Of a stretch of 64,000 nucleotides of DNA, positions 9,781-63,606 are shown piece by piece (the stretch's first letter is position 1; each line of letters begins with the position of its first letter). A program made the translations under genes and the position numbers. Below the pieces are notes generated by a model that worked only from the letters and a program-made list of their open reading frames with translations, was not told the origin of the DNA and did no database searches. The stretch covers positions 509,429-573,428 of the forward strand of contig CP129476.1 of NCBI GenBank assembly GCA_030583805.1, given 5' to 3'. The DNA comes from Patescibacteria group bacterium. Lineage in GTDB: Bacteria > Patescibacteriota > Patescibacteriia > SG8-24 > DYFX01.

Positions 9781-10233
9781 ATGAACGCCATTCTCGCCAC
9801 GAACGACAAAGCGCGGTACGACTACGAGTTCCTCGAGAAGATCGAGGCGGGCTTAGTGCTCTCCGGCCAGGAAGTGAAGTCCGCCAAGACCGGCCACCTC
9901 AAACTCAAGGGCGCGCACGTCACGTTCCATCGCGGCGAAGCGATGCTGACCGGCGCGCACATCGCCCGGTACCCGAAAGCCGGCCCCCTCCCCGACTACG
10001 ACCCCGAACGCTCGCGCAAGCTCTTGCTCCACAAGAAGGAAGTGAACCGTTTGCGCGGAAAACGCGAGGAAGACGGATTGACAATCGTGCCGATTCGTGC
10101 TTATATAAAGGGCGGCCGCATCAAAGTGGAGCTCGCCGTCGCGCGCGGCAAGAAGCAATTCGAAAAGCGCGAGGCGATCAAAAAGCGCGACCTCGAACGC
10201 GAGGCGCGAGGCCGGATGAAGATCCGGCGGTAA
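9781..10233 (+). CDS. smpB: SsrA-binding protein SmpB
   Basis: 150 aa: ...YDYEFLEKIEAGLVLSGQEVKS...GAHIARY...LLLHKKEVNRL...KGGRIKVELAVARGKKQFEKRE.... This is the canonical SmpB length and motifs, and it lies directly upstream of the tmRNA. Confidence 0.9.
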   Translation: MNAILATNDKARYDYEFLEKIEAGLVLSGQEVKSAKTGHLKLKGAHVTFHRGEAMLTGAHIARYPKAGPLPDYDPERSRKLLLHKKEVNRLRGKREEDGLTIVPIRAYIKGGRIKVELAVARGKKQFEKREAIKKRDLEREARGRMKIRR

Positions 10234-10268: not shown

Positions 10269-10671
10269 GGGGATGACTAGATTCGATGGAGTTCGTTCTC
10301 AATTCGCGCAGGTTGACGGAGCCTTCCCGTCATGAATAAAAAGGCAAACGACTACGTGCCAACGTTCTCGCAAAAGTGAAGACGGCGTTCGCTAACGCGT
10401 TCGCTCCGTCCTTCGCTCCGGTCCTCGCCTAAGCGCGACTGACCCATCGCCCGTCGACATCTTCTAGACGGATCACGGTGTTATAAGAAGGTCCGCCGCA
10501 TGTTCCGCCGAGAGGCATGCGATACGGTTGGATCCAGGCACGGACGCATACGACTCGTCGCCTCTATGTATGTGCTCCGGTCCCTCACGGGAAAACTCGA
10601 GACGACTACGCCTGTAGTGCGCATTGTCCTACTTCCTCCAGACCCGGGTGCGAATCCCGGCATCTCCACCA
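10269..10671 (+). ncRNA. ssrA: tmRNA (ssrA)
   Basis: The 5' end GGGGAUGACUAGAUUCGAUGG resembles the canonical GGGGCUGAUUCUGGAUUCGACGG. The 3' end has a tRNA-like T-arm GGUGCGAAUCCCGG, then CAUCUCC pairing with the 5' GGGGAUG acceptor stem, then ACCA. It lies immediately after smpB. The internal tag ORF is ambiguous (a GCA resume codon follows AAAAAG; candidate frames end ...APVLA-stop or ANDYVPTFSQK-stop). Confidence 0.8.
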
Positions 10672-10679
10672 AAGAAAAG
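10647..10679 (+). repeat. 33-bp direct repeat copy 1 (ggtgcgaatcccggcatctccaccaaagaaaag), the 3' end of ssrA; putative attL of the integrated island
   Basis: Exact 33-bp identity with 17000..17032, seen directly in the sequence. Confidence 0.85.
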
Positions 10680-10723
10680 TGTCTCTCTACGAGGGGTATT
10701 TTTCTTTTGAATTAACAGTGAAT

Positions 10724-10756
10724 AAAAACCATCCTGAGACTACCAGGATGGTTTTT
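10724..10756. terminator. Hairpin aaaaaccatcctg-agacta-ccaggatggttttt, a bidirectional terminator candidate between ssrA and the 3' end of the HTH-HNH gene
   Basis: Perfect 13-bp inverted repeat with flanking A/T runs, seen in the sequence. Confidence 0.5.
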
Positions 10757-11771
10757 GTCTCCTCCTTGCGCCCCCCATGCACTTATTGCAGTAGACGCCC
10801 AGGTTTTTAAGGGAGTGGTCCTTGGTACTCCTCAGGTGAATAACATTCAGATCCTTGCCGAACCGTTTCTTATGTTCAGTTCTTTTCAGACCACACTTTT
10901 CACACTTCTCCCCCGCCGCCATCATGGCTTTTTCCCTATTGCCACCAAAGTCACGGTAGTCGTAGAAGCATCGTAAACAATATCCATGTTGGAAGTGTTC
11001 ATCAGTGGTCGTCCCACATCCGCGGCATTTCTCGTATTTACGTGACCACCTATCCCCCAAGCTATTAGACTTGGACATGTTCCTTTTGAACATGCATGAA
11101 CTACAAAGCACGATAAGATTTTCGAGGTCGCTGCCATCTCCAACCTTTTTTACGACGTTGAGGTCGTTGCCCGATTTCTTGTTGTACTCGTCTCTTGAGA
11201 TTCCGCAGTCCTCACAACTCTGCCGAGCCCGCTCAAGCGCCTTTTCTCGATTACCTCCAAAAGCGATTGCATCGTACCAACAGTTCGTGCAATACCCCTC
11301 TCTGAGATGCTTATACTTTGTCTTTCCGCAAAGTCTGCAACGTAGGTAGTTTCTCGCCCATCGAGACTTCACCTCTCGCTTTAACTTTTGATACTTTTCA
11401 AATACCGCTGGTACATACTTCTCCAGCTCTTCTTCCGTAACGTCGTATTGAAGCAGGAACCGTCCGTGGTGCGTGAAGGAGTCGATTGCCCTGAACATCT
11501 CGTCTTCTTTTTCCAACAGACGCGCACCCTTCACACGAGTCCTTGCGTCTTCGTGCGTCTTTTTTTTCGCCTCCACGAATGCCTTGAGATCAATCGCGAA
11601 GCCCCTTTCAACCATCGCGTTCACCTCGTCGTGCCAAAGTCTGTTCAGCAGCTGTCGAATGCGCTCCCGAGAAAGCCCAAGCTTGTCCCCGATTTCCTGG
11701 AACGTGTGGCCTTGCGCATAGAGGACCCCGACTGTGGCGTCCCGCTGGCTGTCTTTCTCAGGGGGGTTCAC
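10740..11771 (-). CDS. Sigma-70 region-4-like HTH protein with two tandem HNH-like nuclease repeats (each CxxC ... NL..LC..C)
   Basis: N-terminal GHTFQEIGDKLGLSRERIRQLLNRL is a sigma r4/LuxR-like HTH. Repeat 1: CRLCGKT...CTNC...CEDCGISRDEYNKKSGNDLNVVKKVGDGSDLENLIVLCSSC. Repeat 2: CRGCGTT...CLRC...CEKCGLKRTEHKKRFGKDLNVIHLRSTKDHSLKNLGVYCNKC. Low-GC codon usage. Confidence 0.55.
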   Translation of the reverse strand: MNPPEKDSQRDATVGVLYAQGHTFQEIGDKLGLSRERIRQLLNRLWHDEVNAMVERGFAIDLKAFVEAKKKTHEDARTRVKGARLLEKEDEMFRAIDSFTHHGRFLLQYDVTEEELEKYVPAVFEKYQKLKREVKSRWARNYLRCRLCGKTKYKHLREGYCTNCWYDAIAFGGNREKALERARQSCEDCGISRDEYNKKSGNDLNVVKKVGDGSDLENLIVLCSSCMFKRNMSKSNSLGDRWSRKYEKCRGCGTTTDEHFQHGYCLRCFYDYRDFGGNREKAMMAAGEKCEKCGLKRTEHKKRFGKDLNVIHLRSTKDHSLKNLGVYCNKCMGGARRRQKPSW

Positions 11772-11780: not shown

Positions 11781-13874
11781 TTAGCTCTCAAGACTGAAGG
11801 CGTCATCCGTCAGGAATGCCGACAAATCCTTCGACGCGGCCGAAAGGACACCGATCAGCATGTTGTTGACCGCTTCATCTACTCGAGCCGCGTTAAAGTT
11901 CTCCGGCTCCTTCCTCTCAAGCTCGAAGATGAGGTCCTTTTGGAAGATTTCCAAATACCGATTGAAGAGGAAGGTGCGGAACTGCAACGATTTCGCTCCG
12001 TATTTGTCGAGAATGTACCTCGCCATCGGATTTGCCGTGTTGATCCAGTAGATGCCGTGGGCAAGATCTTCCCTTCTTTGGAAGACGACCGTGTGACGCG
12101 GGGTAAGCTCCACTGGACCATTCACGATGCCAAGTGGATCCACATCATGATTCGAAAGAAGCACTTGTTGCGGCTTGGGGCCCTTGGACTTGCCCGAAGA
12201 ATCATCTTTCACCACGCGAACGACGATACGCGCCTCGTGTCCACCGACTTCCGCCGTGATTTCCGAAGTCGCATCCAGCTTCTCGCCAGTCACAAAAGCC
12301 TTCAGTACGCCGACTTGCGCACCGCTTGCTGCAATCTTCAGGTCGTCGCTCGAGACCACGATGGTGTCGGAGTCCATCGTGACATCAGCACCACTGCTCT
12401 TGAGGGCGATAACCGCACCGACAGGGATCTCCTCAGGACTACGAGTCTTCAAGATGAGCGGGTATTTAACCTTCAGCGGGATGTCGATTTCGGACACCAA
12501 GAACTCCAGTGCGCTTTCGGGCTCTTCGAGCGTTTTCTTTTTCGTGCCCTTGTTTCCTGATTTGTCGCCGCCCTCGGAACCCCCGATGGTCTCCTCAATC
12601 AGCTTCCTCATGACCTTGTCCTTCCAGTCGTTCAGGAACTTGTTGAACTCCGAAGAGATTTTGCGGTCGTTTTCCGCATTATCCTTTCTATCCTTCTCAG
12701 CGATTTCTTTCGCGAGTTTGTCTACCTCTTGGGCAATCCAGCTCAGGAGCGCCCTGGTACGTTCGTTGTTGACGAGTTCCACGCGATCGTTCTGCACGCT
12801 GTCGTGTTCCGCGCTCTCAAGAATCTCGCAGTTTTCAAGTTCACCCCAGATGTGGTTGGCTTGCGGGAAGTTCTTGATTTCAAGCCTGCCGAAGGGATAG
12901 GAGGCGATGCCGCCGACCTCACCAATGACGTCCAAACGATTCAGTTCGCCGTACTTGCTGCCGTCCAACGCGATCTCAGACGTGTGCAGCACGAGGCGCC
13001 CCGCGGAATACTTCGCAGACCCAATCACCACTTCGCCCTCCCCGTCCGTATTCGCCAACGGCAACTTATCAGGAACGGTGACGATTTTGGGTGTTTCGAA
13101 TCCTGAGTAGGGTTGCAGCTTCTCCGGAACGAGCTTTCCGTAAAGAGACTCACCGTTCTTGAATACAGATAATGTGATGCGGTTCAGCACCCGCATAAGC
13201 TGCGGGTGGTGCCTGAGTTTTTCGATAATCTGTTCGGGAGCCTGTGACTTCTTCCTTTTCGCAGAATCTTCACGCTTTGGGGAGTACCCCCAAACGATCG
13301 TAAAACCTGTCTTACCTTTCTCAAGGAGTTGCCTGGCAGTTTTGGGAATATTTTGCTTCTGGATGTTCCCAAGCTTCAAGGCCGCATCGAGTGAAAGCTT
13401 TCGGCCCTGATATCCTTCGTCGTATCCGTACCTTCGGTCTTCATTGAACCCGAATACACTGATTTTGCCGTCCTTATAGGTAACGAAATGCGCGTGCTCG
13501 AACATCTGCCTCATGTAGAACTTCCCCCCGTTTCCATGGCCACCAAAGGTTTTCACATCCTTGCCACGCGTTGCGGCAAGGGCGCTAAACCATTTCTTGA
13601 AAGCCGATTCGATGTCCGTATCATCCATGCCAACAAAATCGAGACAGCCCACGGCTTCTTCGCCATCCAAATCGTCCTCAAAGAGGAGGATTACCGAGGT
13701 GTCATCGTCAGAAAAATCCGAACGCTTATAAGCGTCGATGGAGTTCTTGATCCATTCGGCGATTCCTTTGGGGTGATTGAAGCTGAACGCCTGACCCATG
13801 AAATCGAGCGCGCGCTCTTCGTCCAGAATCGCTCTCTCTGCCTTGATGACAAAACCCTTTTTACTTTTCGGCAT
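11781..13874 (-). CDS. GHKL-superfamily (Bergerat-fold, HATPase_c_3/MORC-like) ATPase, 697 aa, with a long C-terminal extension of unknown function
   Basis: N-box EWIKNSIDAY (ExxxNSxDA). G1-like VGCLDFVGMDDTD. G2-like FGGHGNGGKFYMRQMF. The 4-nt spacing to the downstream HTH-HNH gene suggests an operon. No nuclease motif is recognisable in the remaining ~500 aa. Confidence 0.55.
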   Translation of the reverse strand: MPKSKKGFVIKAERAILDEERALDFMGQAFSFNHPKGIAEWIKNSIDAYKRSDFSDDDTSVILLFEDDLDGEEAVGCLDFVGMDDTDIESAFKKWFSALAATRGKDVKTFGGHGNGGKFYMRQMFEHAHFVTYKDGKISVFGFNEDRRYGYDEGYQGRKLSLDAALKLGNIQKQNIPKTARQLLEKGKTGFTIVWGYSPKREDSAKRKKSQAPEQIIEKLRHHPQLMRVLNRITLSVFKNGESLYGKLVPEKLQPYSGFETPKIVTVPDKLPLANTDGEGEVVIGSAKYSAGRLVLHTSEIALDGSKYGELNRLDVIGEVGGIASYPFGRLEIKNFPQANHIWGELENCEILESAEHDSVQNDRVELVNNERTRALLSWIAQEVDKLAKEIAEKDRKDNAENDRKISSEFNKFLNDWKDKVMRKLIEETIGGSEGGDKSGNKGTKKKTLEEPESALEFLVSEIDIPLKVKYPLILKTRSPEEIPVGAVIALKSSGADVTMDSDTIVVSSDDLKIAASGAQVGVLKAFVTGEKLDATSEITAEVGGHEARIVVRVVKDDSSGKSKGPKPQQVLLSNHDVDPLGIVNGPVELTPRHTVVFQRREDLAHGIYWINTANPMARYILDKYGAKSLQFRTFLFNRYLEIFQKDLIFELERKEPENFNAARVDEAVNNMLIGVLSAASKDLSAFLTDDAFSLES

Positions 13875-13882: not shown

Positions 13883-14491
13883 CTATCTCACTACGTCAAA
13901 TACGGCCTTGCCGAGTTTTTTCTGCAAAAACCCGTAATACTCTGTGAGGCTTTTTACGAGCTTCGGCTCGAAACCACTCTTCCTGGCCTCATCGAGTGCT
14001 GTTCCTACCACGGCAATCCGTCCAGTCAGTTCCTCTGGTTTGGTTCTCACGCTTACTCCCAGGAACGAGTAGAGATCGGCCTCGATGATGTCGTCCGTCT
14101 TTCCGGTAAGATAGAGCGCAAATCCTTCAAGTCCTTTCATACGCAGAATCTCGGTCGCCGTAGAACGAGAAAGCCGGCTCGTGTCGTTTTTGACGGGCTT
14201 ACTCTTCCCGGAAAGCCTTCGCGCCTCGTCCAAGCCCCTAACAGTAAGGGAGAACATCTTGTTGGACGAACGGAGAAAGCCCGCCTTCTTGAGATTCGTA
14301 TAGAGCGGCTTGTGAACCAGGTCACCCGAATCGGGGTACTGCCGGTAGCCTTTCAGGTGGAAGTTGTCTGGGAAGAGCTCGTATACCTTGACTACTATGT
14401 CCTCATACCTGAGCGATTTGGTGCTGTCCTTGGACAACTCAAACATCGCCAGGAGGATTTTTTCCGATCTCGAGAGCGTGTCGTTGCTCAT
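13883..14491 (-). CDS. Hypothetical protein (202 aa) of the island
   Basis: Clean low-GC ORF MSNDTLSRSEKILLAMFELSKDSTKSLRYEDIVVKVYELFPDNFHLKGY.... The 8-nt gap to the GHKL gene suggests an operon. No recognisable motif. Confidence 0.4.
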   Translation of the reverse strand: MSNDTLSRSEKILLAMFELSKDSTKSLRYEDIVVKVYELFPDNFHLKGYRQYPDSGDLVHKPLYTNLKKAGFLRSSNKMFSLTVRGLDEARRLSGKSKPVKNDTSRLSRSTATEILRMKGLEGFALYLTGKTDDIIEADLYSFLGVSVRTKPEELTGRIAVVGTALDEARKSGFEPKLVKSLTEYYGFLQKKLGKAVFDVVR

Positions 14492-14492: not shown

Positions 14493-14783
14493 TCACAGGC
14501 TGAAACCGTCGCCGTTTTTTGAACTCGTAAACCTGTCTTTTACCATTCGGAGCTCCCTATCTACTGCAGAAAACATCTTCCTGACTTCAGCCTCAGTATA
14601 GTCATACTGGCTCTTATTCGACAGATTACCGAGGCTTTTGATGCGCCTTAGGATGTTGTTTACCCGCAGGGTTGCGATACGCTTAAACTTGTCCGATTTT
14701 GTCTCTTTATTTTGCGACATATTTGGAGAATATTTGTCGAATATTGTTGCGCTATCTTTACCAAATATACACAAATCCGTCAA
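14493..14783 (-). CDS. Hypothetical small protein (up to 96 aa; an alternative start at MSQNKETK gives 75 aa)
   Basis: ORF sits between the dcm and the 202-aa gene with a 1-nt gap to the latter. Lys-rich. No motif. Confidence 0.3.
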   Translation of the reverse strand: MTDLCIFGKDSATIFDKYSPNMSQNKETKSDKFKRIATLRVNNILRRIKSLGNLSNKSQYDYTEAEVRKMFSAVDRELRMVKDRFTSSKNGDGFSL

Positions 14784-14799: not shown

Positions 14800-15783
14800 T
14801 TAACGAGAGGCAGTGTCCATTGCCCTTTTCATCTCCTTCGCGATTTCCCTGATAACCGGAACGGCGACCGAGTTTCCAAGGAGCTTATATGCCTGCCTGA
14901 CCGTCACAGGCATCTTGAACCCCTTATTAAAACCTTGTAGCGCCTTGCATTCATTAACCGTTAGACGTCTGATGCCCAAGGTATTAATCGGGCTTTTCAA
15001 GTCCGCTCCTTCGCCGCCATCCGAAGGAAGAATGCGGTCTTTCACAAGGTTCCTTTCCCTACCCATATTGCCAGCCACGAACGTATTGGCGATACCTTCG
15101 GGATCCAACACGCAATATCCGAAGTTGCTACCCGCATCGGAGTGCCTCTGCTTGTGCTTAATCAAACCGTCCATGTACTGCTTACTCAAGTAGTGGGACG
15201 GATGTGCGCCTTTCTCCAAAATCTCCTTCAATGGTTTTGGTGCTTTTCTTTTAAGATTATTGAAGCTGAAGTCTATTTTTGGGTTTTTAAATCCAACAAT
15301 AAAAACTCTTTCACGTTTTTGTGGTACTCCGAAGTCCTTGGCATTAAGTACCGCGACGTGGACCTGGTAGCCCAACTTCACTCGTAGAGACCGGAGTATC
15401 GTTTTGAGTGTCTCTCCACCTTCGTGTGAGACCAAGGCTTTCACGTTTTCAAACATGAAGGCCTTCGGTCGAGTCCTGTCGATTAAGTGCTCTAACACGA
15501 AAAAGGCGTTCCCACGAACGTCTTCGAAACCATGTCCCTTTCCTGCCCTCGAGAAGGGCTGACATGGGAAGCCTCCGAGCAATACGTCGTATTTAGGAAT
15601 CTCGAGTAAGTCAACCTCTTCGAGCGGCTTACATACGATCGGACCGTGGTTTGCGGCATAGACAGTTGCAGCATGCGCATCCATGTCGTTGGCAAAGACC
15701 GTCTGGAAGCCAGCCTTCTCAAAACCTAAACGAATACCGCCGATTCCGGCGAATAGGTCGATGCATCTATAGGCCTTCTTCAT
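14800..15783 (-). CDS. dcm: DNA (cytosine-5)-methyltransferase (Dcm-type C5-MTase)
   Basis: Motif I CIDLFAGIGGIRLGF. Motif IV GGFPCQPFSRAG. Motif VI ENVKAL. Motif VIII QKRERVFIVGF. Motif X KLLGNSVAVPVIREI. 327 aa. Confidence 0.9.
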   Translation of the reverse strand: MKKAYRCIDLFAGIGGIRLGFEKAGFQTVFANDMDAHAATVYAANHGPIVCKPLEEVDLLEIPKYDVLLGGFPCQPFSRAGKGHGFEDVRGNAFFVLEHLIDRTRPKAFMFENVKALVSHEGGETLKTILRSLRVKLGYQVHVAVLNAKDFGVPQKRERVFIVGFKNPKIDFSFNNLKRKAPKPLKEILEKGAHPSHYLSKQYMDGLIKHKQRHSDAGSNFGYCVLDPEGIANTFVAGNMGRERNLVKDRILPSDGGEGADLKSPINTLGIRRLTVNECKALQGFNKGFKMPVTVRQAYKLLGNSVAVPVIREIAKEMKRAMDTASR

Positions 15784-15924: not shown

Positions 15925-16364
15925 TTAGAAGGCGAAGGAACCGCTCTTGGAGCTACAGACAACGATGGTCACCTCTTTAGCCAAGTCGTCGATGTAGTGC
16001 CCCACCTCGTCTTCTTTCTTGTTTCTAACCTTAAGGGCCACATGCCCATCTTTCTTTCTACTTGTAAGTAACTTTGTGAACTTCTTAAACTTTTTATTGT
16101 GCTCAACAAAGTTGTTTCGATAGTACTCAATAAAAACTCCCTTAACCAAACCTTTCGGCGTTAGATACAAGGAGATTTCTTTGTTGACGTTGTAGAGGCG
16201 TGCATTCCTCGGCATTTTTGGCAGACCCCACTCCAAAGAGTCCATTTCTGAGTCATACTCAAAAACCCAACCATCTTTTTTGGCCAGTGAATCGAGATGG
16301 AGAATCTCGCTTTTAACAGTTTTGGTTACGTCGTGGGTCATATGATTTGCGGCTATGGCCATTT
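15925..16364 (-). CDS. Hypothetical protein of the island (about 146 aa starting MAIAANHMTHDV); the track ORF extends further 5' into an implausible Arg-rich overlap
   Basis: The low-GC Lys-rich body (...WVFEYDSEMDSLEWGLPKMPRNARLYNVNKEISLYLTPKGLVKGVFIEYYRNNFVEHNKKFKKF...) only begins after about residue 70 of the track ORF. Confidence 0.35.
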
Positions 16365-16724
16365 CCCGTGTACGCACGTCGTCTGGCCGTGTTCCCTGGG
16401 CTCGATTGCGTCGTCGTAATAGGTAGTTCGAACTGCGGCGGGGCTCGCGCCACTGATCTGGACAACGACCTTCACGAAGTTGTGACGAACCTGCCCGGAA
16501 GGCGTTACTTTGGTGCCAAGGGACCGATAGTAGCAGAGGGCGCCGGCGACCGACAGACTTTCGTAAACCCACTGCGGTGATACCAAGACGAGCTTCACCT
16601 TCTTGAGGTAGCTCTTATGTGCGAGGTATGGGCGCTTTGCAAGGTGATTCACGCGATTCACCTCATGGAAAACGACCCGTCGCCCTGCATAATCAGTGCA
16701 GTCTAAGCAGTTGCTCGGGGGCAT
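16353..16724 (-). CDS. Hypothetical protein at the attR-proximal end of the island (123 aa, CxxC ... H-rich N-terminus); possible decayed nuclease or recombinase remnant
   Basis: MPPSNCLDCTDYAGRRVVFHEVNRVNHLAKRPYLAHKSYLKK.... It overlaps the upstream part of the 15925..16572 track ORF, so only one of the two frames is real there. No confident motif. Confidence 0.25.
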   Translation of the reverse strand: MPPSNCLDCTDYAGRRVVFHEVNRVNHLAKRPYLAHKSYLKKVKLVLVSPQWVYESLSVAGALCYYRSLGTKVTPSGQVRHNFVKVVVQISGASPAAVRTTYYDDAIEPREHGQTTCVHGKWP

Positions 16725-16999: not shown

Positions 17000-17032
17000 G
17001 GTGCGAATCCCGGCATCTCCACCAAAGAAAAG
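17000..17032 (+). repeat. 33-bp direct repeat copy 2 (ggtgcgaatcccggcatctccaccaaagaaaag), a displaced copy of the ssrA 3' end; putative attR
   Basis: Exact identity with 10647..10679. It is followed by its own hairpin plus T-run (cctct-ccg-agagg cgtttttctttt). Confidence 0.85.
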
Positions 17033-17089
17033 CGCCCCTCTCCGAGAGGCGTTTTTCTTTTGTCATGCTACACTTACCCCAAGACACCT

Positions 17090-49273: not shown

Positions 49274-52200
49274 TTAGTCGCTCGCGTTCGGACCGTCGGC
49301 CCTGTTTACGTACTTGTTTTTCATGGTGAAGCGTCCTTCCGGCGAAGCGGCCGTCTTGTCGATGCGTCCGATGTACCACATGCACGGATTGCCGGAGATA
49401 TCCGAGACGGACGAGAGCAGGCGCGTCGTGCCGCTCGTGACGCCGGAGACGCTCGCGTCCGATCCCGATTCGATCGTGAAGATGGAATTGCTCTTGATGG
49501 TCGCGCTGGCCGCCTTCCACCAACCGCTGTTGCGATTGAATTCAGGCATGTTGGCGTAGTTGCCGTCCACGAAACAGCTGCCGCCGTTCGCAAAGACGTG
49601 ATAGGTGCCTTGGGGCAACGACTGGGTTGAAAGCACCATGATCTCAGGATCCGTGGCGTGCGTGCCTCCCGTCACGTCCCAGAAGAGACGGATGTGGTCG
49701 GCCGCGAAGTTGCCGTTGCCGACGTAGCGCGTATCTGCAGCGCTCGCTTTCCAGCCGAAGTACTTGGTCTGCCCTGCGAGAGGCCCTGAACTGTAGACAG
49801 CCTTCACATAGAGGTCTACTTCGTTGGCGGCATTGTGAGGCGTCGGCCACGAGATCTTGAAGCGGAAGTCGCCGGGCAGGAGCGTACCGTTGTCGCAACC
49901 GCCGGTATAAAGGCCGCAACCCCTGGAGCACAGGACCTGACCGGCTGTGCCGGCACCCTGTGAAGCGCAGCTCGGTGCCGATCCACCAGCGAACGTGTTG
50001 TTATCGCAGACTTCACCGTAGGCCGAATGGATGATGCCGTCACCGCAATAGCCTCCGTTCGGATCGTAGACGCAGTCGTTGCGGCAGACGTAGGTCGTGC
50101 CTTGACCGCGTGCTTGCGGATCGCCCTGGCCATCGCACTGTTCGCCGAATTGCGTCTGTCTCACGCTGTCTCCGCAGAATGCGGGACTCTTGGCGTTCGT
50201 GCCGAAGCAGGCGTTCGAGCAGTAGTTGCAGGAGCCGTCCATGCGGTAGGCCACGCACGGGCCGTTCGCGCCGCATTCAGCGTCGTTCGTGCACAAGCGA
50301 CCGTTCACCTTGCACTTCCTGGCCGTCGCCGCCGCCTGCGTATTCGTGTAGGGCTCGGGCTGGCACTGCGTATTGAACGCGATGCATTGACCCTCGCCGC
50401 CTTGGCAATACTGGCCGGAGACGCAGTCGGAAGCGCTGCGGCACGGCGCACCTTCAGGCGCGCTCGTTCCCGTCCCCGTATACGGAGTGTATCCGGGGTC
50501 GAACGACGTGCCCGTATCGCCGATATCCACGCGCGGCGGACCACCGCCGGACGCCGTTGTAACGGTCAGGTTTTGATCGCGCGTCGACATGTTGCCGTTG
50601 CCGTCGAAGGCGTCGATCGAGATGACGTGAATGCCGGCCGAAAGCGCGCCGACGTTGACCGAGCAGGCTGCCGAAGCGAGACGCGGATTATAGCGGCAGG
50701 TCTGGCGCAGCACTTTGACGCCGGCTGTCGTGAGGTAGATATCGATGTTATCGACAAGTGCGGCGGCATCCGTCACGTCCGAGACCGTAATAACAACGCT
50801 GTCAGCCGTGTTCGGGCTCGTAGGCGCCGTGGTGATCGGACCGATGACGGGAGGCGTCGTGTCGCCGGGGACTCCGGCGTTGCATTCGCCGGGACCGCAG
50901 GTCGCGAACGTCGCGATCGTGCCAGCGAAACGAAGCGCGGCTTCGCCAAGAGGTCCGTACATCGGGATCGCGACGTCGGAGCGCGCAAACCTCTGCTTTG
51001 ACGGAGCAGCGGCCGAAGGCGTAGAAGCGCCCGGATAGTTGCGGCAAACGCCCGGCAAGCAGTCGTTGTTCGTCGTGCAGCCTTTGACTCCGCTCGTGTC
51101 CGCCGGGTTCTGGTAGGTGCGGCTGCACCAGGCCGTGACGGGACCAGGGTCGCACGTTTCCGGCGGCGCCGTAATCGTCCGGTCGCCGCAGAAGGCGCCG
51201 GAGATCGTTTCGATCGAGCAGTCGTTCTTGCAGTAGTTGCAGACGGAACCGTATTGCGGCGTGCAGAGGACGCCGTTGGCCGCGCCGTTGTCGCACTGTT
51301 CGACGCCGGAGCGCACGAAGCCGTCGTTGCAGACGTTCAGGCGGCAGGACGTGAGACATGCTCCGTTCGGCGAATTCGCCGCGCCGTCGTCGCACTGCTC
51401 CGCGCCTTCGATCACGCCGTTGCCGCACGCGCCTGACGGACGGCAGACGGACCAGTCGTTGAACGTGCAGGCTTCGCCGACCGGTTCGGTCGCGGGTTTG
51501 CAGCTCTTGGCGCGCGTTTGCGGGAGGCCGCCCGGCGTCACGGCGCACAACGCGCACGTTTCTCCGCTGGCGCAGTCCGAATTGCTTGAGCAAGAAGCGT
51601 AGTTGCTCGACGCGCCGTTCGTGTCAGCCAAGGAAGAGCCGCTCGGAATGCAGACGCCGGGTGCCGTCGCCTGATTGCCGTCGCATTCTTCATCGCCATT
51701 CGTCTCGCCGTCGCCGCACCGCGGGCCGGCGCCGCGGCAGTCCCAGGCGCAGAAGCCGTACTCGCCGTTGTTCGCGCCGTCATCGCAGGTTTCGCTGCCA
51801 TTCCTCACGCCATCGCCGCAGAAGTTCATGCGGTCGGTGCAGACCGAAGGGAACGGCAAGCCGGAGCAGTCAGAATTCGTGGCGCATGCCTGCGCGAGAT
51901 CGCAGCTGCCGTCGGCGCAGTTGCCGTCGAAAGCCGCGCGCTTCGTAATATTGACGCAGCGTTTCACGCAACCCAGGCTGCCGCTGCGGCAGCGTCCGTA
52001 CTGGCCGTTTTGCGCGCCGTCGTCGCAGCTTTCACCCGCGAAGGTTTCGAGCGATCCGTTACCACAAGCGGCCGGTCCTGGGCAGGCGGTTTGCACCTGC
52101 CATTCGCACGCGGCGTTGCAGCTTTCGAGCGATTGGCCTCCGCTGGCGCAAGCGACGTTGCGCGTCTGACCGATCTCGCAAGCTTCCGTGCCTTCAAGCA

Positions 52201-55200
52201 AGCCGTTGCCGCACGCGCCGCCGGCCGCCGGGCCGACGAGCGGTACGCCGATCGGCATGCAGACGTCCTGTACGGAGCACTCGGCGGACGCGGTGCAAGC
52301 GGCGCCGGTGGTGAGACACGCCTTCGGAGCCGTTGGCGAGGGCAGGCCGGCGCAGACCGGCGTGATCGAAATGCGCGTCGTGCAGTTTCCGGTCGTCGGA
52401 CCGGTCGGAATCCACGAGCAGCCGAGCGCGGCTTCGCAGCTGAAGAGCGAAGTTTTCGCGGCGCACGACGTGCCGAGCCATTGGTAGGTGACGTACTCGA
52501 AGTCGACCGACATGCGGTAATCAATGCCGCCGATCGAGCGGTACTGGTAGACGTGCGAATGCGCCGGGCAAGCGAATACACCGAGCGTATCGTTGTAGCA
52601 GGTTTCCGCTTCGAACGTCGGGCGGCAGACGTCGCCCGCGCCGCCCGCGCAGTCGCCATCGGCGGCGCATGCAGTGCGGCTGATGGAGCACTCCGAACCG
52701 AAGGCTTCACAGCGGTTGAACGCGTTGACCGGATCGACGACGGCTCCGGCCGCGCCGAGTTGCTGGCTCCAGGACGGCCACTTGGACGTGGTGAATCCGC
52801 GCACGAAGCTTCCGGACTCGACTTTCGGATAGAAGCCCGTCTGTTCGCGCGTCGTTTCCAGCGCGTTTTCGATGACGCGCATATCCTGCCAGCGGCGCAT
52901 GTCGCGGCGGATCTTGTCCTTGTCGGAATCGCAGCGCATGTCAGCCGGTCCTGCCGGAAGCGCGCGCACGCAATCGAGGTCGGTCGAGCACATGATCGGC
53001 GCCGTCGATTCCGCCGTCAGGTGGAGAATCTCCCCCGCCGCGTTCTTACAGACGTTGGTCACGCGATCCGAAGGCACGAGGTTGGTATTGAAATTGACGT
53101 TGCCGACCAGGCGGTTGAAGATTTCCGCCGTGCGAGGATCCGCATTGTCGTTGTACGCGAAGACGTAGATGTACGAGCGGATGTCCGGATCGCCGTATTT
53201 GTCGGCCGCGCCGACGTACACGGTGCGCTCGTCCTTGATCGCTTGGTAGCCGTCGACCGTCGCCGCTTCCGTCTTGCCGGAGAACCGCTGGGCGACGTAC
53301 CACTCTTGCGGCGTCAAACGATCGTAGTTCTCATACACGCGCATACCGATCGCGTCCGAAACCCGCCATTCCGGCTGGAAGCGGAAAAGCAGATCTTTCG
53401 AGCGGCAGGTGTCACCCGCGTTGCAATCGGCATTCGAAACGCACGCGCGCGGCTGCGAGAAGTCCGTCGTCGCGGCGCAGAAGCGCAGGAGACCCGAACC
53501 TCCGACCGACTGGCCCTGCACGGGTTGCGGCATGAGTTCCGGAAGCGACGTGCCGGCGTTGTCTCGGCAATAGTAGAACTCGAAGTGGGTCTGCGGATCG
53601 ACATACGGAGCCCAGGCGCCCGTCAAAATGTTGCGGCGCGGCCACGGCATCTGGCAGAGCATGATCGTGATCGAGGATTTGCCGATCTTGTCGCTGCCGG
53701 CGGTCGAAGGCGTGAGGGCGGTATCCGTTTGGATGCGCGCCGTCGCCGCGACTTGCTCCTGGCCGTTAATCCCCTTGGTGGCTTGCACGGTCGCGGAAGA
53801 AGCGCCCGCAGCCGCCGTCAAATCGAGGAGCGCGCCAACTGTCGCGTTTTCGGGAATCGTCGCCCAGCTCCACGTCCAGTCGTACACGCCGGGCACCGGC
53901 GCGATCGCCTCGAGGCGGCCGCCGCGGTCCGTCATGGCCGTCGCCGTGATCGTGAGCGGGATTGCGGAGTCTTGAATGAGCTCCGTGGCCGGCGTGGTTT
54001 GCACGACGTCGAAACGGCAGACGTCCGTGCCCGTCGTGAAGTCCTGGATCGTATCCACTGTTTCCGGATATCCGACGCCCTTCACCGTTTTCACGCCCGT
54101 CTGGCCGCCGCGCACCGTGACGCGGTACAGGCGCGACGAGCTCAGCATCTGCCTGGGCGCGAACGTCGAAAGCGTGCGAACCGTGCCATCGGGCGCGGTG
54201 ACGTTCGTGTGCGTGAAGGTGCCTTCAACCGGCGCGCAGATGTGCGATGCGGAAACTTCCAAGCCCACCAGCGAGCGGAAGAAGCGTCCGATCGATGAAG
54301 CCGCGCGCGCGAACCAGGAGCGCGGACCGTTTTCGTTATACGCATGGCTCGGGCAGGATTCGACGATGAGGCCGCCCTGGAGCGAGCCGGTATTCATCTC
54401 TTCGCCGAACTGCACGCTGATCTGCACGTTGCGGCATTCGTTGCCGCCCTTGGGATTGATGTCGGGAGCGTCGGGACGCGGGTAGCAGCAGGCGCCGGCG
54501 CCGCAAGAAAGGTTCGAACCGAAGGCCGAACAGTCGCTGTCGGCGCGGCAGGAACATTCGACGTTCACGCTGCCTTGTCCGGAGACGGTGCCGATTGCCG
54601 CCGTCACCGAGGCGTTGCAGTTGTTCCTGGCGTCGCACTGGTTGCGAGCCTCGACGACCTGCGTCGGATCGATGTTCGCATCGAGCGCCGGCGCTTCGCA
54701 TTCCTCACCGCCGCCGTTCTGAATGCCGGTCAACACGTCGGCGGGCTTCACGGTGACGACCGTGTCGCCGCAGAAGGCGCGGAGCTCCGGATCGGAACCC
54801 GTTTTGGTGCAGCGCGAGCTGCAGCCGGAAGACGGATCGCCGTTTTCAGCGGCGGCGTCGCAGTTCTCGCCCTTGGCCGGTTCGATCACACCGTTGCCGC
54901 AGCAGTTCGTACCCGCCGTGCAGGTTACCGGGTTTCCGCGCAAGAGACAGCTTTGGCCGCAAGCGAAATTCGGACGCGTCGGATTGCGCTCATCGGACGC
55001 GCCGAGCGCGACGGACGGACGTCCGGCGACCAGAATCTGCGTCGCGAGACCGCCCGCGCCGAGGATGTAATCGCATTGTTCTCCGGGTTCAAGCGCGCCG
55101 TTGCCGCAGACATAGACGTTCTGGCGGGAACCTTCAAGCAAGCAGCGCGAGCTGCAGCCGTCTCCACCTTCGCTGTTACCGTCATCGCACGCTTCGCCGA

Positions 55201-58200
55201 CGCCGGTTGAGGCGTTGCCGCAAGCCGAGAGGCCCGGCGTCGAACCGACGAGCAAGCAGGCGGTCGTGCAGCCTGCGGCCGCCGTGCCGTTGGCAGGACC
55301 CGCATCGCACTCTTCGCCGCGATCCGCCTGGATCGCGCCGTCGCCGCAGCCATTGGCAAGCGTATTGCCGGTCAACAAGCAATTGGCGTTGCAACCGTTC
55401 AAACCGGGCGTGTCGCAGGCTTCGCCGCGCTCGAGGGTGCCGTTGCCGCACGCGGGCGTACCCGGCGGCTGGCTTCCCGTCATGAGGCAGTTCGTCGAAC
55501 AGCCGGCCGGAAGGACGGGGTTGGTATTGATCAATGTTCCCGGCGGCACGTCGGGCAAGAACGAGAAGGCAACCGGCGCGGCCGGGTTCTGCGCCTTGCT
55601 CCAAGCCCAGTTATAGGAAGCCGCGCTCAGGATCTGGCCGCCCGCCGCGCACGCATCAGGAGAGCTGAGCGGGAGCGCGTTCACCGCCGAAACCTGGCCG
55701 ATGTAACGCAGCGTCGTCTGCGAGGGTTCCACAATGACGCGCTGCGGGCCGCACGGATCGCCGGTAAGGCGCGTGCGGAAAATCCAGCTGAAGGCGTTGC
55801 CTTCGTAGTTCAATCCCGTAAGCGGCGCCTGGCTCGTGCTCATAGCCGTGCCGAGAATGACCGCGCGGTACCAGGTATTGGCCGCCAGAACCGGATTGCC
55901 GAACGTCAGGAGGCGCGACGCCGCGGTGTAGCTCGGAGCAAGCGGCACTTCGCCCTCGAAGGCGAGGCACGATTCGTTGCGGCAGCGGTACAAGCGGACA
56001 TTCGAAAGGATGCTGCCCGGTCCGCTCTCGATCATCGGCGTGTTGAAGTACGCGAAGCTCACGGAGTTCACGCAGGCCTGATCGCAATCATGCGGCCCGT
56101 AGTCCACCACGCGCGGGTTGGCGTAGTCGATCGTCAGCGTGCCCGCATCGCTAAAACCGTCGACGGTCGAGCGGATCTGGATCGGCGGACCAGGGTCTGT
56201 TTCGGAAACCGGCGTCGCGACGGCTTCGCATTGGCGCGAGCCGCCGAGCGAGACGATCGTCGCTTTTCCGGGATCGGTCGAAACCCAGTTCACCGTGCGT
56301 CCGTCGCACGAAAGAATCACGCAGCGGCTTGAAAGCGGGAAGGCTTGGTAGTCTTTGGTTTCGTCGGCGGCGGAAATCAAGGCGTTGCCCGGCTGTACGT
56401 CGACGCCCGAGAGCGTGCAGGGGCCCGCGCCCGTCTTAAAGGACGTAACGTAGGCGCCGCCCGCACGGCTGTCGTAGTTGCCGTCGAGCGGTTGCGCGCC
56501 GCGCTCCGGCGTTCCCAAGCTTTGCACCTGGTCGCGGATCGTCAGGCGGTACCACGTGTCCGGCTGGAGGCCGTTCACGGGCAGTACGAGCTGCGAGCGG
56601 CCATCCGTGTCGTAATCGACGATCGAAGGCGCGCCGGCCGAAGCGACGGGCGTGCAGGTGTTGGAAATGGTGGCGCCAGTGCCGCAAGCTTCGAAAATGA
56701 CGTTGGAAGCGTTGATCGTGGCCGGATCCATCGGCAAGCTGAAGCGCGCCGTCATGGCGCCCATGTCGGTGCAGACGTCGGTCATGCCTTTGAACGGATT
56801 CGGGCTCGGCATCGCCGACGGCGGCGAGACTTGGCACGTCGCGTTCTCCATTACGATCGGGAAGATCGGAATCGGGCCGGTTGAAAATTGCCACGCGAAA
56901 CCGCCGGCAGCCGCGGGAGCGCCGCACGACGCGCGGCACGCGCCGTCATCGCAGCAGCTGCGTCCGCTGCCGCAAGAGGCGTCGCCACCGCTTTCACGGC
57001 AGTCGCGTACCTGGAAATTGACGCCGTTCGATTCAGCCGGCGTGGCGCCGACAAACGTGCGCACGCGCACGGGGCCGGTCGTCGCGCCATCCGGAACGGA
57101 AGCGGCGATCGACGAAGACTGCCACTGGCCGATCGAAGCGGCGTTCTGGTTCTCATTGAAACGGACGGCATCAGGATGCAGCGCCGTGAAGGCCGGGAGA
57201 TCGGCGGCGGAAATCGTGCCGAAGCCGTCGCCGTACAACGTAACCGACGTGCCGACCGGACCGTTGTCGGGGTCGACGCGGCAGAGGCCGGGCGTGAGCG
57301 GGTCGGTGTTGATCGTGAACGGCACGGCGTTCGAAGCGCGGCCGTCGGAACGCACGACCGTGACGTTGTAGGCGCCGAGCGCCACGGCAGTGTCAGCCGG
57401 TGTCGTGAAACGCGCCGGCACTTTGACGGTCACGCTGGCGTTCGTCCAATAGCCCGCCGCGCATTGCGCCGGGAAGCTGATGTCGCCAACCGCCTCGCCG
57501 GCGGCGTTCCGGAAACGCACCGTGCCTCCGGATCCGAAGTTGGAACCAAAGACCGAAAGATACGTGCCCACGGAACCGTCTTCAGGCGTGAGGTATTCGA
57601 TGCGCGGTTCCGTTCCGGCCTCGGGAGGCTCGACGCGGATGCATGCGGGGTTCGAAGGCTGGCCGCCGACCGTCACGCGCAACAAGAAATTCGAGCCGTC
57701 AAAGTCGGTTTCGACGTTCGGAATGGTCGGCGAGAACGAGGTTTCGCTCCACGGCGACACCTGCGAGGCCTCGGCAGCCGTCGCCCAGTCCTGGATTTGC
57801 GAGCAGTCCGAACCGGCGCGCGTGAGCTGCACGCGCGAATCGCCCTGTCCGCCGCCGAAGGCGACGCCCGTCACCGTGACGGTATTGCCGGTTTTGACCG
57901 AGGTCGGAGCGACCGAGCAAATACCCGGGCGCGCAACGTCGTTCACTTGGAAATCGGTGATGATCGGTCCGTAGGCGTCGTTGGTCGCGTCTTGGCGGCC
58001 GCCGGAAGCCGTGACGCGGATCGGTCCCGTGACCGCGCCTTGCGGCACGAGCACGACGATACGCGTATCGCTCCAAGCGTTGGCACATTGCGCAACGGTC
58101 GCATCCTGTTCATCCCCCGCCGCGGCCGTTCCCAAGAACGTGACGGTTCCCGCCGTCGAGCCGAAGCGGTCGCCCGTGATCGTCACGAGGTTGCCGGGAC

Positions 58201-59533: not shown

Positions 59534-61321
59534 TTATGGGAGGAAACCGCAGGCGACCTGCGAGGGTACGCCGTTGCAGCAGAACGCTTCGTTTCCGGTG
59601 CAGACCGTTTGGCCCGCGCCCGGATAGAAGCAGTTCTGACGCAAGTCGCGCAGGCCCGAAGTCAGGCTGAGCGCGTACGGCTGGTTGATCGACAAGAGAT
59701 CGTGGTCGATGATGCCTTTCGTCTGGTCCGGATCGCCGCCGGCGACCGAAGAAACCGACTCGGTCGCGAGCGAGAAGTTGGTCGGAGCGCCGTTCGCGCC
59801 GGGCACGAGCTTCGCGTTATCGCTCGTGAAGCTCGCCGAGCTCATGAGCTTCGAGAACGTCACGGACATCGGCAGATCGCGGGCGATCGAGCCCTGCAGC
59901 ACCGCCGGTTCGTGCGAAACCACGACAGGCGGCACGAGATCGATTTCGTTGGAGGTGCGGAAGTCGTAGTCGTAGTCGTCGTCCGGAGAACCTTGCGCCG
60001 CGCCGTTGCCGTTGCCGTCGAGCGAATTGCCCGCCATGTCGGTGATGCCGTTCGGAGGATAGATGCCGAGCGGCGGCGCGGCCGTGAGCGCGTCGGCGCG
60101 GACGCTGACGTTGATCTGCTGGTTGGCCGGGAGACAGAAGACCTGCTCGCCGCACGAGTTCGTGCCGCACGATTCGTCCGTGCGGAATTCGACGGTGCGG
60201 TAGGCGTTGCCGATTTGCTCCCGGCCCGCGACGACGTTGCCGCCCGACCGCGTGATGGAGAAGCCGGAGCCGACGCTGACCGGATCGATCGCTTCATTGA
60301 ACGTGACGTGGACGAGCGAGTTGCGCGGAACGCCGCTCGCGCCGTCGGCCGGCACGACGTACGAAACCTGGGGCGGCGTAAGATCGAGTACGGTCGACAC
60401 TTGGAACTCCCAGAGATAGCCGGAGTTGAACGTGCCGGTGAAGGCCGGAGCACCCCCGTCGCGCCGCACGCCGTCGGTGCCGCCGCGAAGCGCGATCGTA
60501 TAGAAGACGTTTTCCGTCGGGCTGCCGAAGCAGTTTGCCGGACAGTTGCGCTGCAGGAACGTGAAGCTGCGGCCGTCGGCCGAAACGGCGACGTCGATGT
60601 CCGCGGCCGTCAGGCTCTGGGCGAATTTCTGAGGGAATTGATTCGAAGCCGCGCCCACGTCGACCGATTTCAAGATGGCGACCGTGGCATTGGCTCCGCC
60701 CACGACGATCGAGGCGGGATCGATGCGCTGCTTGAAAGTCACGACAACGCGCGTGTTGCGCGCGACGCCGGTGGCGTTGCGATTCGGGTAGTGGCTTTCG
60801 ATGATGCCGTTGCCCAAGGCGCCCGCCGGACACGTCGCGGAAAGGCCGATGCAGGCGATATCGTTCGGCGCGCTGGAACCGCCGCCCGTGCCTCCCCCGC
60901 CGAGCGCGCCGCCCTCGCCGAGCAGCCTGCTGATGACGAACGAGGTGATGGCGAACGCCGACAGCATAATCACGAGGCCGATCACGGCGGACGTCAGGAT
61001 TTTCTTGGCGCGATCGACCTTCTCGGGATCGCCGGCAGCCGTCATCCAAATGAAGCCGGCGTACAAGACGAGGAGAAGCGCGATCGTGCCGAGGAAACCG
61101 AAGAATGCGCGAATGATGCGCGCGATCGTGATGCGGATGTCGCCCGTGCCGGTGCCGATGACTTCGCCGATCTCGGTCGGCAGCACTTCATTCGACGTGA
61201 CGCCTTGCGCCTGCGCGACATGCGCGAATGCGTAAGACGCAAAAACCACCAACACGAAACTGGCGACCGTGAAGGTGGCTTTGACGAGCGTTTGGGAGAG
61301 TGACTTCCTTCCTGAGAGCAT
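59534..61321 (-). CDS. 595-aa surface protein sharing the VirB2/TrbC-pilin-like N-terminal anchor and Gly linker with the giant gene, then Ig-like/BIG-like beta domains and a Cys-rich C-terminus
   Basis: ...AQAQGVTSNEVLPTEIGEVIGTGTGDIRITIARIIRAFFGFLGTIALLLVLYAGFIWMTAAGDPEKVDRAKKILTSAVIGLVIMLSAFAITSFVISRLLGEGGALGGGGTGGG.... A stretch of ~60 nt is nearly identical to the giant gene (gatgcgcgcgatcgtgatgcggatgtcg.ccgtgccggtgccgat). Confidence 0.8.
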   Translation of the reverse strand: MLSGRKSLSQTLVKATFTVASFVLVVFASYAFAHVAQAQGVTSNEVLPTEIGEVIGTGTGDIRITIARIIRAFFGFLGTIALLLVLYAGFIWMTAAGDPEKVDRAKKILTSAVIGLVIMLSAFAITSFVISRLLGEGGALGGGGTGGGSSAPNDIACIGLSATCPAGALGNGIIESHYPNRNATGVARNTRVVVTFKQRIDPASIVVGGANATVAILKSVDVGAASNQFPQKFAQSLTAADIDVAVSADGRSFTFLQRNCPANCFGSPTENVFYTIALRGGTDGVRRDGGAPAFTGTFNSGYLWEFQVSTVLDLTPPQVSYVVPADGASGVPRNSLVHVTFNEAIDPVSVGSGFSITRSGGNVVAGREQIGNAYRTVEFRTDESCGTNSCGEQVFCLPANQQINVSVRADALTAAPPLGIYPPNGITDMAGNSLDGNGNGAAQGSPDDDYDYDFRTSNEIDLVPPVVVSHEPAVLQGSIARDLPMSVTFSKLMSSASFTSDNAKLVPGANGAPTNFSLATESVSSVAGGDPDQTKGIIDHDLLSINQPYALSLTSGLRDLRQNCFYPGAGQTVCTGNEAFCCNGVPSQVACGFLP

Positions 61322-61348
61322 GGGACAGGAGGGTAGGGTTTCCCGGAA

Positions 61349-61804
61349 CTACGCTTTGTTTTGCAAGAACTCTTTGACCTTTTTGCCGACCAGGCCGCCG
61401 TCGGCCTTTCCCTTCAATTCTTTCATCATTTCGCCCATAAGGCGACCGAACGCGGCTTCGCCGGAGAGTCCGAGCTCGGTGGCTTTTTTGACCACGGCGG
61501 CTTGAACGTCTTCTTCGGAAAGCTGCGCAGGGAGAAACGTTTCGAGGAGCGCGAGTTCGGACTGCGTCGATTCGGCCAAGTCCTTGCGATCGGCCTTCTC
61601 GAAATCCGAGAGGGCATCGCGCAATTTTTTGACTTCGCGTCCGATGACTTCGATCGCCTCGTCATCGCTCAGCTCTTTCACTTGCTTGTCGATCTCGGCA
61701 TTTTTCATGGCCGAGCGGAGCATGCGAAACGCGGATACGGCCGGGGCGTCCTTGGCCTTCATCGCTTCGACGAACCGCTTTTCGATGTCGCTTCTGAGAG
61801 ACAT
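61349..61804 (-). CDS. GatB/YqeY-domain protein
   Basis: MSLRSDIEKRFVEAMKAKDAPAVSAFRMLRSAMKNAEIDK...LSDDEAIEVIGREVKKLRDALSDFEKADRKDLAES...LLETFLPAQLSEEDVQAAV.... Canonical YqeY. It directly follows rpsU as in Bacillus rpsU-yqeY. Confidence 0.9.
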   Translation of the reverse strand: MSLRSDIEKRFVEAMKAKDAPAVSAFRMLRSAMKNAEIDKQVKELSDDEAIEVIGREVKKLRDALSDFEKADRKDLAESTQSELALLETFLPAQLSEEDVQAAVVKKATELGLSGEAAFGRLMGEMMKELKGKADGGLVGKKVKEFLQNKA

Positions 61805-61807
61805 AGC

Positions 61808-62059
61808 TTAACGATGAGTACGTTTCTTGGCGCGGAGGTCTTCTTCTTTCAGCTTGCCGCTTTTGAGCAGATACTCGCGGCGGGCGGCCAGGAACTGGCG
61901 GCGGAGCGCGGCGTCGCGCTGGCCGTTCTTGTTCTTTTCAGCCGTGTGAAAACGGGTTTTCTTGGCTTGCAGAACGCGGCCGGACTGCTGAATGCGGCGG
62001 CTGAAACGACGAAGCAGAGCTTCAAAGCTCTCTCCCTTTTTGCGTTTGACTTCAACCAC
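61808..62059 (-). CDS. rpsU: 30S ribosomal protein S21 (GTG start)
   Basis: MVEVKRKKGESFEALLRRFSRRIQQSGRVLQAKKTRFHTAEKNKNGQRDAALRR.... AAGGAAGG SD is 8 nt upstream of the GTG. Confidence 0.85.
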   Translation of the reverse strand: MVEVKRKKGESFEALLRRFSRRIQQSGRVLQAKKTRFHTAEKNKNGQRDAALRRQFLAARREYLLKSGKLKEEDLRAKKRTHR

Positions 62060-62090
62060 AACAATACACCTTCCTTTCTACTTAAAAATA

Positions 62091-62107
62091 GTGAGACCGG
62101 GTCTCAC
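62091..62107. promoter_or_regulatory. Perfect 17-bp palindrome gtgagacc-g-ggtctcac about 32 nt upstream of the rpsU start, in the 5' leader/promoter of the long rpsU...pyk operon; candidate operator or leader hairpin
   Basis: Seen in the sequence. Its function is inferred only. Confidence 0.3.
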
Positions 62108-62146
62108 AAGCACAGTACCAGAGCGGGAAACGAAGGTCAATAAGGC

Positions 62147-63599: not shown

Positions 63600-63606
63600 A
63601 CGATGA

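Follow-up and report, generated by a model that had tools for sequence, protein, structure and literature searches.

What is the function of a MORC-like ATPase gene that shares its locus with a cytosine DNA methyltransferase gene in a Patescibacteria group bacterium? The gene lies at positions 11781..13874 (minus strand) of a stretch of 64,000 nucleotides, hereafter the window (assembly GCA_030583805.1, contig CP129476.1, positions 509,429 to 573,428 of the forward strand). Its product is very probably a highly divergent MORC-type protein, carrying a MORC-like module made of a GHKL and an S5/transducer domain, and the gene is the central, conserved core gene of a horizontally mobile cassette. 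The cassette may be a restriction-like DNA-surveillance system with the ATPase as its motor, a reading for which we hold belief and doubt to be about evenly balanced.

The ATPase and its predicted fold

The gene is a single uninterrupted open reading frame (ORF) with an ATG start that encodes 697 residues, as reported in an earlier note drawn up from the sequence alone. An identical protein from a Patescibacteria metagenome-assembled genome (P0001) is annotated as 'hypothetical' and is 672 residues long, its NCBI start lying 25 codons downstream. Since residues 10-24 are kept among homologues in an alignment of 43 sequences, the longer ORF is preferable to the NCBI call. The ATP-binding motifs were assessed in the same alignment, which comprises homologues at approximately 40% identity, and in a second one of 77 non-redundant orthologues from genome assemblies. 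In the 43 sequences, the N-box EWIKNSIDA (E40, N44 and D47), a motif of the ExxxNxxD type that supplies the catalytic Glu and a Mg-binding Asn, is invariant or nearly so; the G1 box (D79-F-V-G82-M83) is a DxxGM variant, one residue shorter than DxGxG, in which D79 and G82 are invariant; and the G2 box GGHGNGGK (residues 111-118, G111-K118) and motif IV (G190-F-T192) are both invariant. All of these motifs, the N-box included, are at least 90% conserved among the 77 orthologues. Because they are conserved to this degree in both alignments, the ATP motifs are not a chance resemblance. The earlier note had picked out EWIKNSIDA, DFVGM and GGHGNGGK as Bergerat motifs at these same places, and their invariance in the 43-sequence alignment upholds that assignment.

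The family is invisible to Pfam (sub-threshold matches only), NCBIfam and PADLOC. The Pfam HATPase_c_3 model aligns to residues 38-141 of the ATPase with 17.1 bits (E 0.0058), below its cut-off of 25 bits, and similarly weak HATPase_c_3 matches occur in 26 of the 43 family members, the best at 3e-4. Neither NCBIfam nor PADLOC (PADLOC-DB v2.0) contains a model matching the ATPase. Sequence searches of the PDB with the single protein, a full-length profile and an N-terminal profile retrieved no MORC or GHKL chain at E <= 10, giving chance-level matches only.

The fold is recognised in a structure that AlphaFold2 predicted from the 43-sequence alignment (mean pLDDT 82.5). The model contains a Bergerat fold, and Foldseek ranks MORC2 first among its matches (E 1.3e-8, probability 1.0), in agreement with the GHKL/MORC-like identity suggested by the earlier note. 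MORC2, MORC3 and SMCHD1 are the nearest structural neighbours, and MORC proteins outscore the MutL, Hsp90 and topoisomerase families. Between 287 and 299 residues of the ATPase align structurally to the N-terminal modules of MORC3, MORC2 and MutL; from the length of these alignments, residues ~1-365 are predicted to form a combined GHKL and S5/transducer module. The earlier note had placed the ATP-binding part in the N-terminal 150 residues; the module extends well beyond these. It had also described the remaining ~500 residues as an extension without recognisable motifs, thereby missing the transducer domain. A profile of the C-terminal domain gave chance-level matches in the PDB and nothing consistent in Pfam.

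Five parts can be delineated along the chain, all on the minus strand. The Bergerat ATP-binding domain (residues ~30-200, 13275..13787) is supported by the invariant columns, the weak HATPase_c_3 match and the fold matches. It is followed by the S5/transducer-like domain (residues ~210-365, 12780..13247), placed by the alignment to the MORC3, MORC2 and MutL modules and by conservation, with HPQ 223-225, L311-N312-R313, D315, E345, E353, D358 and N362-D363-R364 among its conserved residues. A single long helix of 60 residues (371-430, 12585..12764), assigned by DSSP on the model at pLDDT >90, is a coiled-coil candidate and is found in both the long and the short subfamilies of the ATPase. An Ig-like beta-sandwich (residues ~455-556, 12207..12512) is specific to the long subfamily (~700 residues) and is regarded as an insert, because the short subfamily (~590-615 residues) lacks exactly residues ~450-530. 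Weak Pfam GreA_GreB matches in nine of the 43 members were discarded, as they probably reflect this beta-rich insert. The chain ends in a conserved domain of ~130 residues (~568-697, 11784..12173), with S574, D579, R593, Q599-R600, D603, YWIN 609-612, W632-R633 and R639 as its conserved residues.

The S5 domain of MORC proteins carries a specific motif, GhXhhpXXRhl (Iyer, Abhiman & Aravind 2008, PMC2292703). Its sole candidate counterpart is G305-S-K-Y-G-E-L-N-R313-L-D (family consensus GSxLGxLNRIDI), in which the Gly, the Arg and some of the hydrophobic positions fit and others do not. Since the motif is only partly matched, the ATPase is not filed as MORC proper.

That the protein might instead be a housekeeping one, paralogous to cellular MutL, to Hsp90 or to a topoisomerase B subunit, is scarcely credible. 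NCBIfam has no equivalog for it, the Pfam domains MutL_C, HSP90 and Toprim are all absent, sequence profiles retrieve no GHKL protein of solved structure, and MORC proteins come out ahead of all three families in the structure comparison. The gene moreover resides in a genomic island and belongs to an operon of patchy phyletic spread. The results thus side with the earlier note, for which a known HSP90 or MutL paralogue would have counted against its reading.

A conserved gene cassette

In the window, the minus-strand gene order is Dcm, a 75-residue protein (s75), a 202-residue winged-helix protein (p202), the ATPase and a 343-residue protein with a sigma-70 region-4 helix-turn-helix (HTH). 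The Dcm C5-cytosine DNA methyltransferase (14800..15783, minus, 327 residues) matches DNA_methylase (1.4e-86), TIGR00675 (1.5e-86) and PADLOC MTase_II (8e-99). The helical protein s75 (14493..14720, minus) is encoded by the first gene of a four-gene core, its stop codon lying 1 nucleotide (nt) before the ATG of p202. The p202 gene (13883..14491, minus) is directly upstream of the ATPase gene, and the 343-residue protein (10740..11771, minus) is encoded directly downstream, the gaps between the four genes being 1, 8 and 9 nt. The earlier note had given the last of these gaps as 4 nt; the downstream gene starts with GTG 9 nt after the ATPase stop codon, and the tight translational packing of the two genes stands.

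The structural model of p202 (pLDDT 89.8) comprises an N-terminal winged helix (residues 5-95) followed by an all-alpha domain, with no nuclease fold among its structure matches. A kleisin-like reading of p202 is at most a lead, since its matches to MukF and Scc1 score no better than those to generic winged-helix proteins. The 343-residue protein matches Pfam Sigma70_r4 (7e-8) and contains two zinc modules (residues ~137-229 and ~241-335).

Homologues of the ATPase number more than 635 at 90% clustering and form 542 clusters at 50% clustering, 140 of them with E <= 1e-30. Candidate phyla radiation (CPR) bacteria have them most often, and they also occur in Nitrospirota, Acidobacteriota, Verrucomicrobiota, Planctomycetota, Myxococcota, Actinomycetota, Ignavibacteria and Elusimicrobia, a sporadic distribution over more than 10 phyla. 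No homologue was found in the phage collection. The ORFs of 89 loci were clustered, and partners were counted in the 44 non-redundant loci whose flanks measure 3 kb or more on both sides: p202 is present in 39 of the 44, a sigma region-4 partner in 35, Dcm within 4.5 kb in 32 and an s75 orthologue in 26. The Dcm-linked loci belong to unrelated phyla and show different orientations, which speaks for a functional link and against an accidental one.

Four architectures recur. Architecture A, that of the window, is found in CPR bacteria with the ~700-residue ATPase and has the order s75, p202, ATPase and HTH-zinc protein, with Dcm often on the opposite strand. Architecture B (Microgenomates) consists of Dcm, s75, p202, an ATPase of ~610 residues and a protein of 500-650 residues, and architecture C (non-CPR phyla) of a protein of 800-1000 residues, p202, an ATPase of ~593 residues and Dcm. 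Architecture D (Ignavibacteria) resembles C, with a bona fide HNH protein replacing Dcm. In architectures B to D, the large protein combines RNA_pol_A_CTD, Sigma70_r4 and HARE-HTH domains. A fusion of s75 to this partner in clades without a separate s75 was ruled out (hhalign probability 0.3%).

Several further genes were observed next to the cassette. In Ignavibacteria (locus L087, 5011-5745; also L086 and L089), the usual Dcm position is occupied by a 244-residue protein whose HNH domain is genuine (Pfam 1e-6); its N-terminal half looks, by eye, like an SRA-type reader of modified cytosine, a hint that the cassette may also have a methylation-dependent form. A Vsr gene adjoins Dcm in two loci (L092 and L093). 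In two Nitrospirota loci (L054, 4458-5213, Pfam 5e-22; L061), a gene for a Fic-domain protein follows that of the alphaCTD-sigma4-HARE-HTH protein. Two CPR loci that are unrelated to each other (L004, 277-1329; L008, 9217-10197) have an S-adenosylmethionine synthetase gene no more than a few kb from the cassette, maybe through coincidence or a shared insertion neighbourhood.

A distant version of the cassette is on a conjugative plasmid of Ensifer adhaerens (NZ_CP118613.1, 59223-62548, locus L090), a cultured bacterium. It encodes an 800-residue relative of the ATPase (25.6% identity over residues 17-428), flanked in permuted order by an s75 homologue (44% identical) and a 229-residue p202 homologue (hhalign probability 97.4%), all three annotated as hypothetical. 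Since this plasmid carries a distant version of the trio, s75, ATPase and p202 probably represent the ancient core of the cassette.

The consistent adjacency of a Sigma70_r4 protein (35 of the 44 loci) could also be explained if the ATPase were a GHKL protein kinase or an anti-sigma-type regulator that phosphorylates or sequesters this partner in the manner of SpoIIAB and RsbW. GHKL kinases do exist, but the best structural matches of the ATPase all have the transducer domain that is characteristic of GHKL ATPases acting on DNA, the structural matches listed include no histidine-kinase or SpoIIAB-type chain, and the partners possess region 4 alone rather than a full sigma factor. Such a regulatory role is therefore very improbable.

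The zinc modules of the HTH partner

As the nuclease candidate, the earlier note had proposed the adjacent protein, described as dual-HNH. Both zinc modules of the 343-residue protein follow the family consensus RWSxxYxxCxxCGTTxxPH...CxxC...CxxC...D...CxxCF. Several relatives (P0201, P0210 and P0216 are among those that match) carry Pfam HNH, with one score above threshold (1.3e-5), and the module is thus homologous to HNH domains. The 343-residue protein itself has no match to any HNH family of Pfam at E <= 0.1. Classified by these residues, 99 modules comprise 11 with H-N-H, 36 with H-N-(F/M/L/Y), 13 with one of three mixed patterns and 39 that are fully degenerate, lacking the His, the Asn and the intervening loop. 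Neither module of the window is among the 11. Module 1 has Lys, Asn and Met, with Lys at the catalytic His position; module 2 has H312, N323 and M332, and lacks both usual metal ligands because Ile precedes the His and Met takes the place of the last His. In addition, the protein is replaced in other clades by one without a nuclease. 'Dual HNH' is thus true of the protein's ancestry, and its nuclease activity is putative and unproven. The best effector candidate, and the sole nuclease candidate in the window, is module 2 (H312, N323); this is the least certain of the assignments made here, and its activity is doubtful.

A parallel cassette in another locus (L091, 287-4048) encodes a 73-residue protein, a 578-residue GHKL protein that belongs to another family (HATPase_c_3, 3e-5), a 300-residue protein and a sigma region-4 protein with a canonical HNH. 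That a canonical sigma4-HNH protein is paired with a different GHKL protein speaks for a functional basis of the GHKL/sigma4-HNH pairing and against mere accident. The alternative partner of other clades (RNA_pol_A_CTD-Sigma70_r4-HARE-HTH) shares only the sigma region-4 HTH with the 343-residue protein and has no nuclease domain, and some HTH partners combine Bac_DnaA_C (DnaA domain IV) with Sigma70_r4. Proteins of the alphaCTD-sigma-HARE-HTH type were reportedly described by Aravind and Iyer in 2012 and have the same architecture as the alternative partner; in the window's 343-residue protein, the zinc modules replace the alphaCTD and HARE-HTH parts.

These partners raise the alternative that nothing is cut. 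A MORC-like clamp, loaded by proteins that mimic promoter-binding factors (sigma region 4, alpha-CTD, DnaA domain IV and HARE-HTH modules), could compact unmethylated foreign DNA or block its transcription or replication, as a bacterial counterpart of the methylation-linked silencing by eukaryotic MORC proteins. Since most orthologous cassettes carry no recognisable nuclease, this mode retains some weight: no nuclease fold is seen in the universal core, most HNH-like modules are catalytically degenerate, the alternative partners (RNA_pol_A_CTD/Sigma70_r4/HARE-HTH or Bac_DnaA_C/Sigma70_r4) contain DNA-binding modules only, and the closest structural relatives of the ATPase, MORC2, MORC3 and SMCHD1, are eukaryotic silencing ATPases. 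However, a minority of partners keep an intact HNH, which suggests cleavage as the ancestral output, the ATPase's C-terminal domain could house an unrecognised nuclease, and we know of no bacterial precedent for nuclease-free silencing by a MORC protein. Silencing of this kind is accordingly considered unlikely. Somewhat less likely again is the stronger version, in which the cassette is a nuclease-independent epigenetic silencing machine that compacts DNA without the Dcm mark or shuts off its transcription and is the prokaryotic antecedent of the MORC/5-methylcytosine axis of plants and animals.

A proposed restriction-like function

In the restriction-like DNA-surveillance reading, the Dcm methyltransferase encoded in the same locus is the feature shared with restriction-modification systems, and its methylation would label the host's own genome. 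If it resembles the ATPase modules of MORC, MutL and type II topoisomerases in this respect, the ATPase would be a constitutive dimer, possibly held together by the long helix or the C-terminal domain, and ATP binding would close its N-terminal gate around DNA, making it a DNA clamp or sensor. Two partners, p202 with its winged helix and the sigma region-4 HTH protein, may bring the ATPase to DNA, and clamping on unmodified incoming DNA would then trigger the effector step. The earlier note had likewise proposed a MORC- or MutL-type ATPase acting with a separate nuclease. The MORC-like part of that proposal agrees with the present results, but its HNH effector is unproven, and it had missed the adjacent Dcm, p202, s75 and the island at the transfer-messenger RNA (tmRNA) gene in which they lie.

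Several observations weigh against this reading. Dcm is lacking near 12 of the 44 loci, and no nuclease was found among the downstream genes examined in five such loci, where the ORFs encode unrelated products (a YDG/cadherin surface protein, an M23 peptidase, RelA/SpoT, a trypsin and EVE). The Ensifer plasmid carries the trio without an adjacent Dcm or HTH partner. No recognisable nuclease fold is present in the universal-core proteins, as judged by the structure matches of p202 and by the ATPase C-terminal profile against the PDB and Pfam; the alternative partner likewise contains none, 39 of the 99 zinc modules are fully degenerate, and module 2 of the window has lost its metal ligands. PADLOC and NCBIfam match Dcm alone (methylase models), and no PADLOC model covers any of the four non-methylase proteins.

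A genomic island at the tmRNA gene

The cassette of the window lies in a region of low GC content: from about 10 to 17 kb the value drops to 0.49-0.53, as against 0.62-0.65. The smpB gene (9781-10233) directly precedes the tmRNA gene ssrA (10269-10671, plus; Rfam 76 bits, missed by ARAGORN). A repeat search identified a 63-nt direct repeat with its left copy at 10647..10709 (plus) and its right copy at 17000..17062 (plus), the GC drop falling between the two. The repeat consists of the last 25 nt of the tmRNA gene and the next 38 nt, the latter a candidate terminator, and its copies are 89% identical and 6.35 kb apart. Because the 3' end of the tmRNA gene is thus repeated, the cassette is considered to reside in a 6.35-kb low-GC island inserted at ssrA, bounded by the two copies. 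The ORFs of the island include no integrase, replication or transfer genes; the absence of a visible integrase ORF suggests a decayed or trans-mobilised element. Elsewhere, the cassettes of loci L002 and L007 and the GHKL-HNH cassette of L091 adjoin large serine recombinases and ParB_N-N6_N4 methyltransferase fusions, which fits carriage by integrative elements.

Such mobility would also be compatible with s75, ATPase and p202 serving the carrier element itself, through stability, partition-like DNA organisation, replication control or addiction, with Dcm merely a frequent neighbour. The Ensifer trio, which occurs on a conjugative plasmid with neither methylase nor HTH partner, the proximity of serine recombinases and ParB-methylases, and the DnaA domain IV of some HTH partners are all in line with this explanation. 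It is nevertheless improbable: it does not account for a Dcm link found in 32 of 44 loci across unrelated phyla and in different orientations, the window's island lacks integrase, replication and transfer genes of its own, and the kleisin matches of p202 are no better than generic winged-helix matches. The restriction-like reading is preferred.

Three other features of the window were recorded. Two overlapping ORFs (up to 215 and 123 residues, 15925-16724, minus) without a Pfam match lie between Dcm and the right repeat. A single ORF that encodes 3418 residues (49274-59530, minus) is very large for a Patescibacteria genome of ~1.2 Mb. A second GC drop (0.51-0.54 versus ~0.65) at 61000-64000, the right end of the window, is possibly another acquired segment.

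Significance and comparison with known systems

The family is widespread (542 clusters at 50% identity) yet unannotated, and through it a predicted MORC clamp is connected with cytosine methylation in bacteria. Because the ATPase is accompanied by a winged-helix partner and, as a rule, by a cytosine methylase and a sigma-like reader, the cassette offers a compact, testable model for a MORC clamp that reads DNA methylation, and genetics are feasible since a cultured Ensifer strain carries one relative on a plasmid. To our knowledge, the immune repertoire of CPR bacteria is poorly known, and the cassette adds a candidate defence system to it.

MutL acting with MutH or Vsr resembles the cassette in placing a GHKL and S5 ATPase beside an enzyme that sets a methylation mark, with perhaps a nuclease encoded separately and, in certain relatives, Vsr. 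However, the window ATPase lacks the C-terminal dimerisation/endonuclease domain of MutL, has no MutS partner and is not a core genome gene. The Shedu protein VcSduA (PMC12137116) unites an N-terminal GHKL domain and a DUF4263 PD-(D/E)xK nuclease in a single polypeptide, the GHKL domain being proposed to control the nuclease in phage defence. A GHKL ATPase in a proposed defence role is the shared feature; the window ATPase lacks a DUF4263 domain and sits in a multi-gene cassette. The ATPase modules of MORC2, MORC3 and SMCHD1 are 12-15% identical to the window ATPase, which differs from these proteins in lacking CW, chromo-like and SMC-hinge domains, in its C-terminal half and in being encoded in a bacterial operon.

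The closest described kind is MORC/paraMORC, with paraMORC1 nearest, a likeness drawn from the published description. MORC and paraMORC ATPases were predicted to act in restriction-modification operons that also encode cytosine methylases, Vsr, helicases, and HNH or other nucleases; paraMORC1 was noted to carry its own C-terminal extension and to occur in some cases with HNH genes; and in 2008 the eukaryotic MORC silencers were predicted to descend from the prokaryotic forms (PMC2292703). Literature searches found no experimental study of a prokaryotic MORC/paraMORC ATPase or of such a cassette. The cassette differs in having no superfamily-II helicase or PD-(D/E)xK partner and in having p202, s75 and sigma region-4 HTH partners instead, and the sequence of the window ATPase is too divergent for the Pfam HATPase_c_3 cut-off and for PDB profile searches. 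The two are alike in the GHKL and S5 domains with intact ATP motifs and a conserved extension beyond S5, in operons with cytosine methylases, Vsr and HNH-type proteins, and in lateral mobility.

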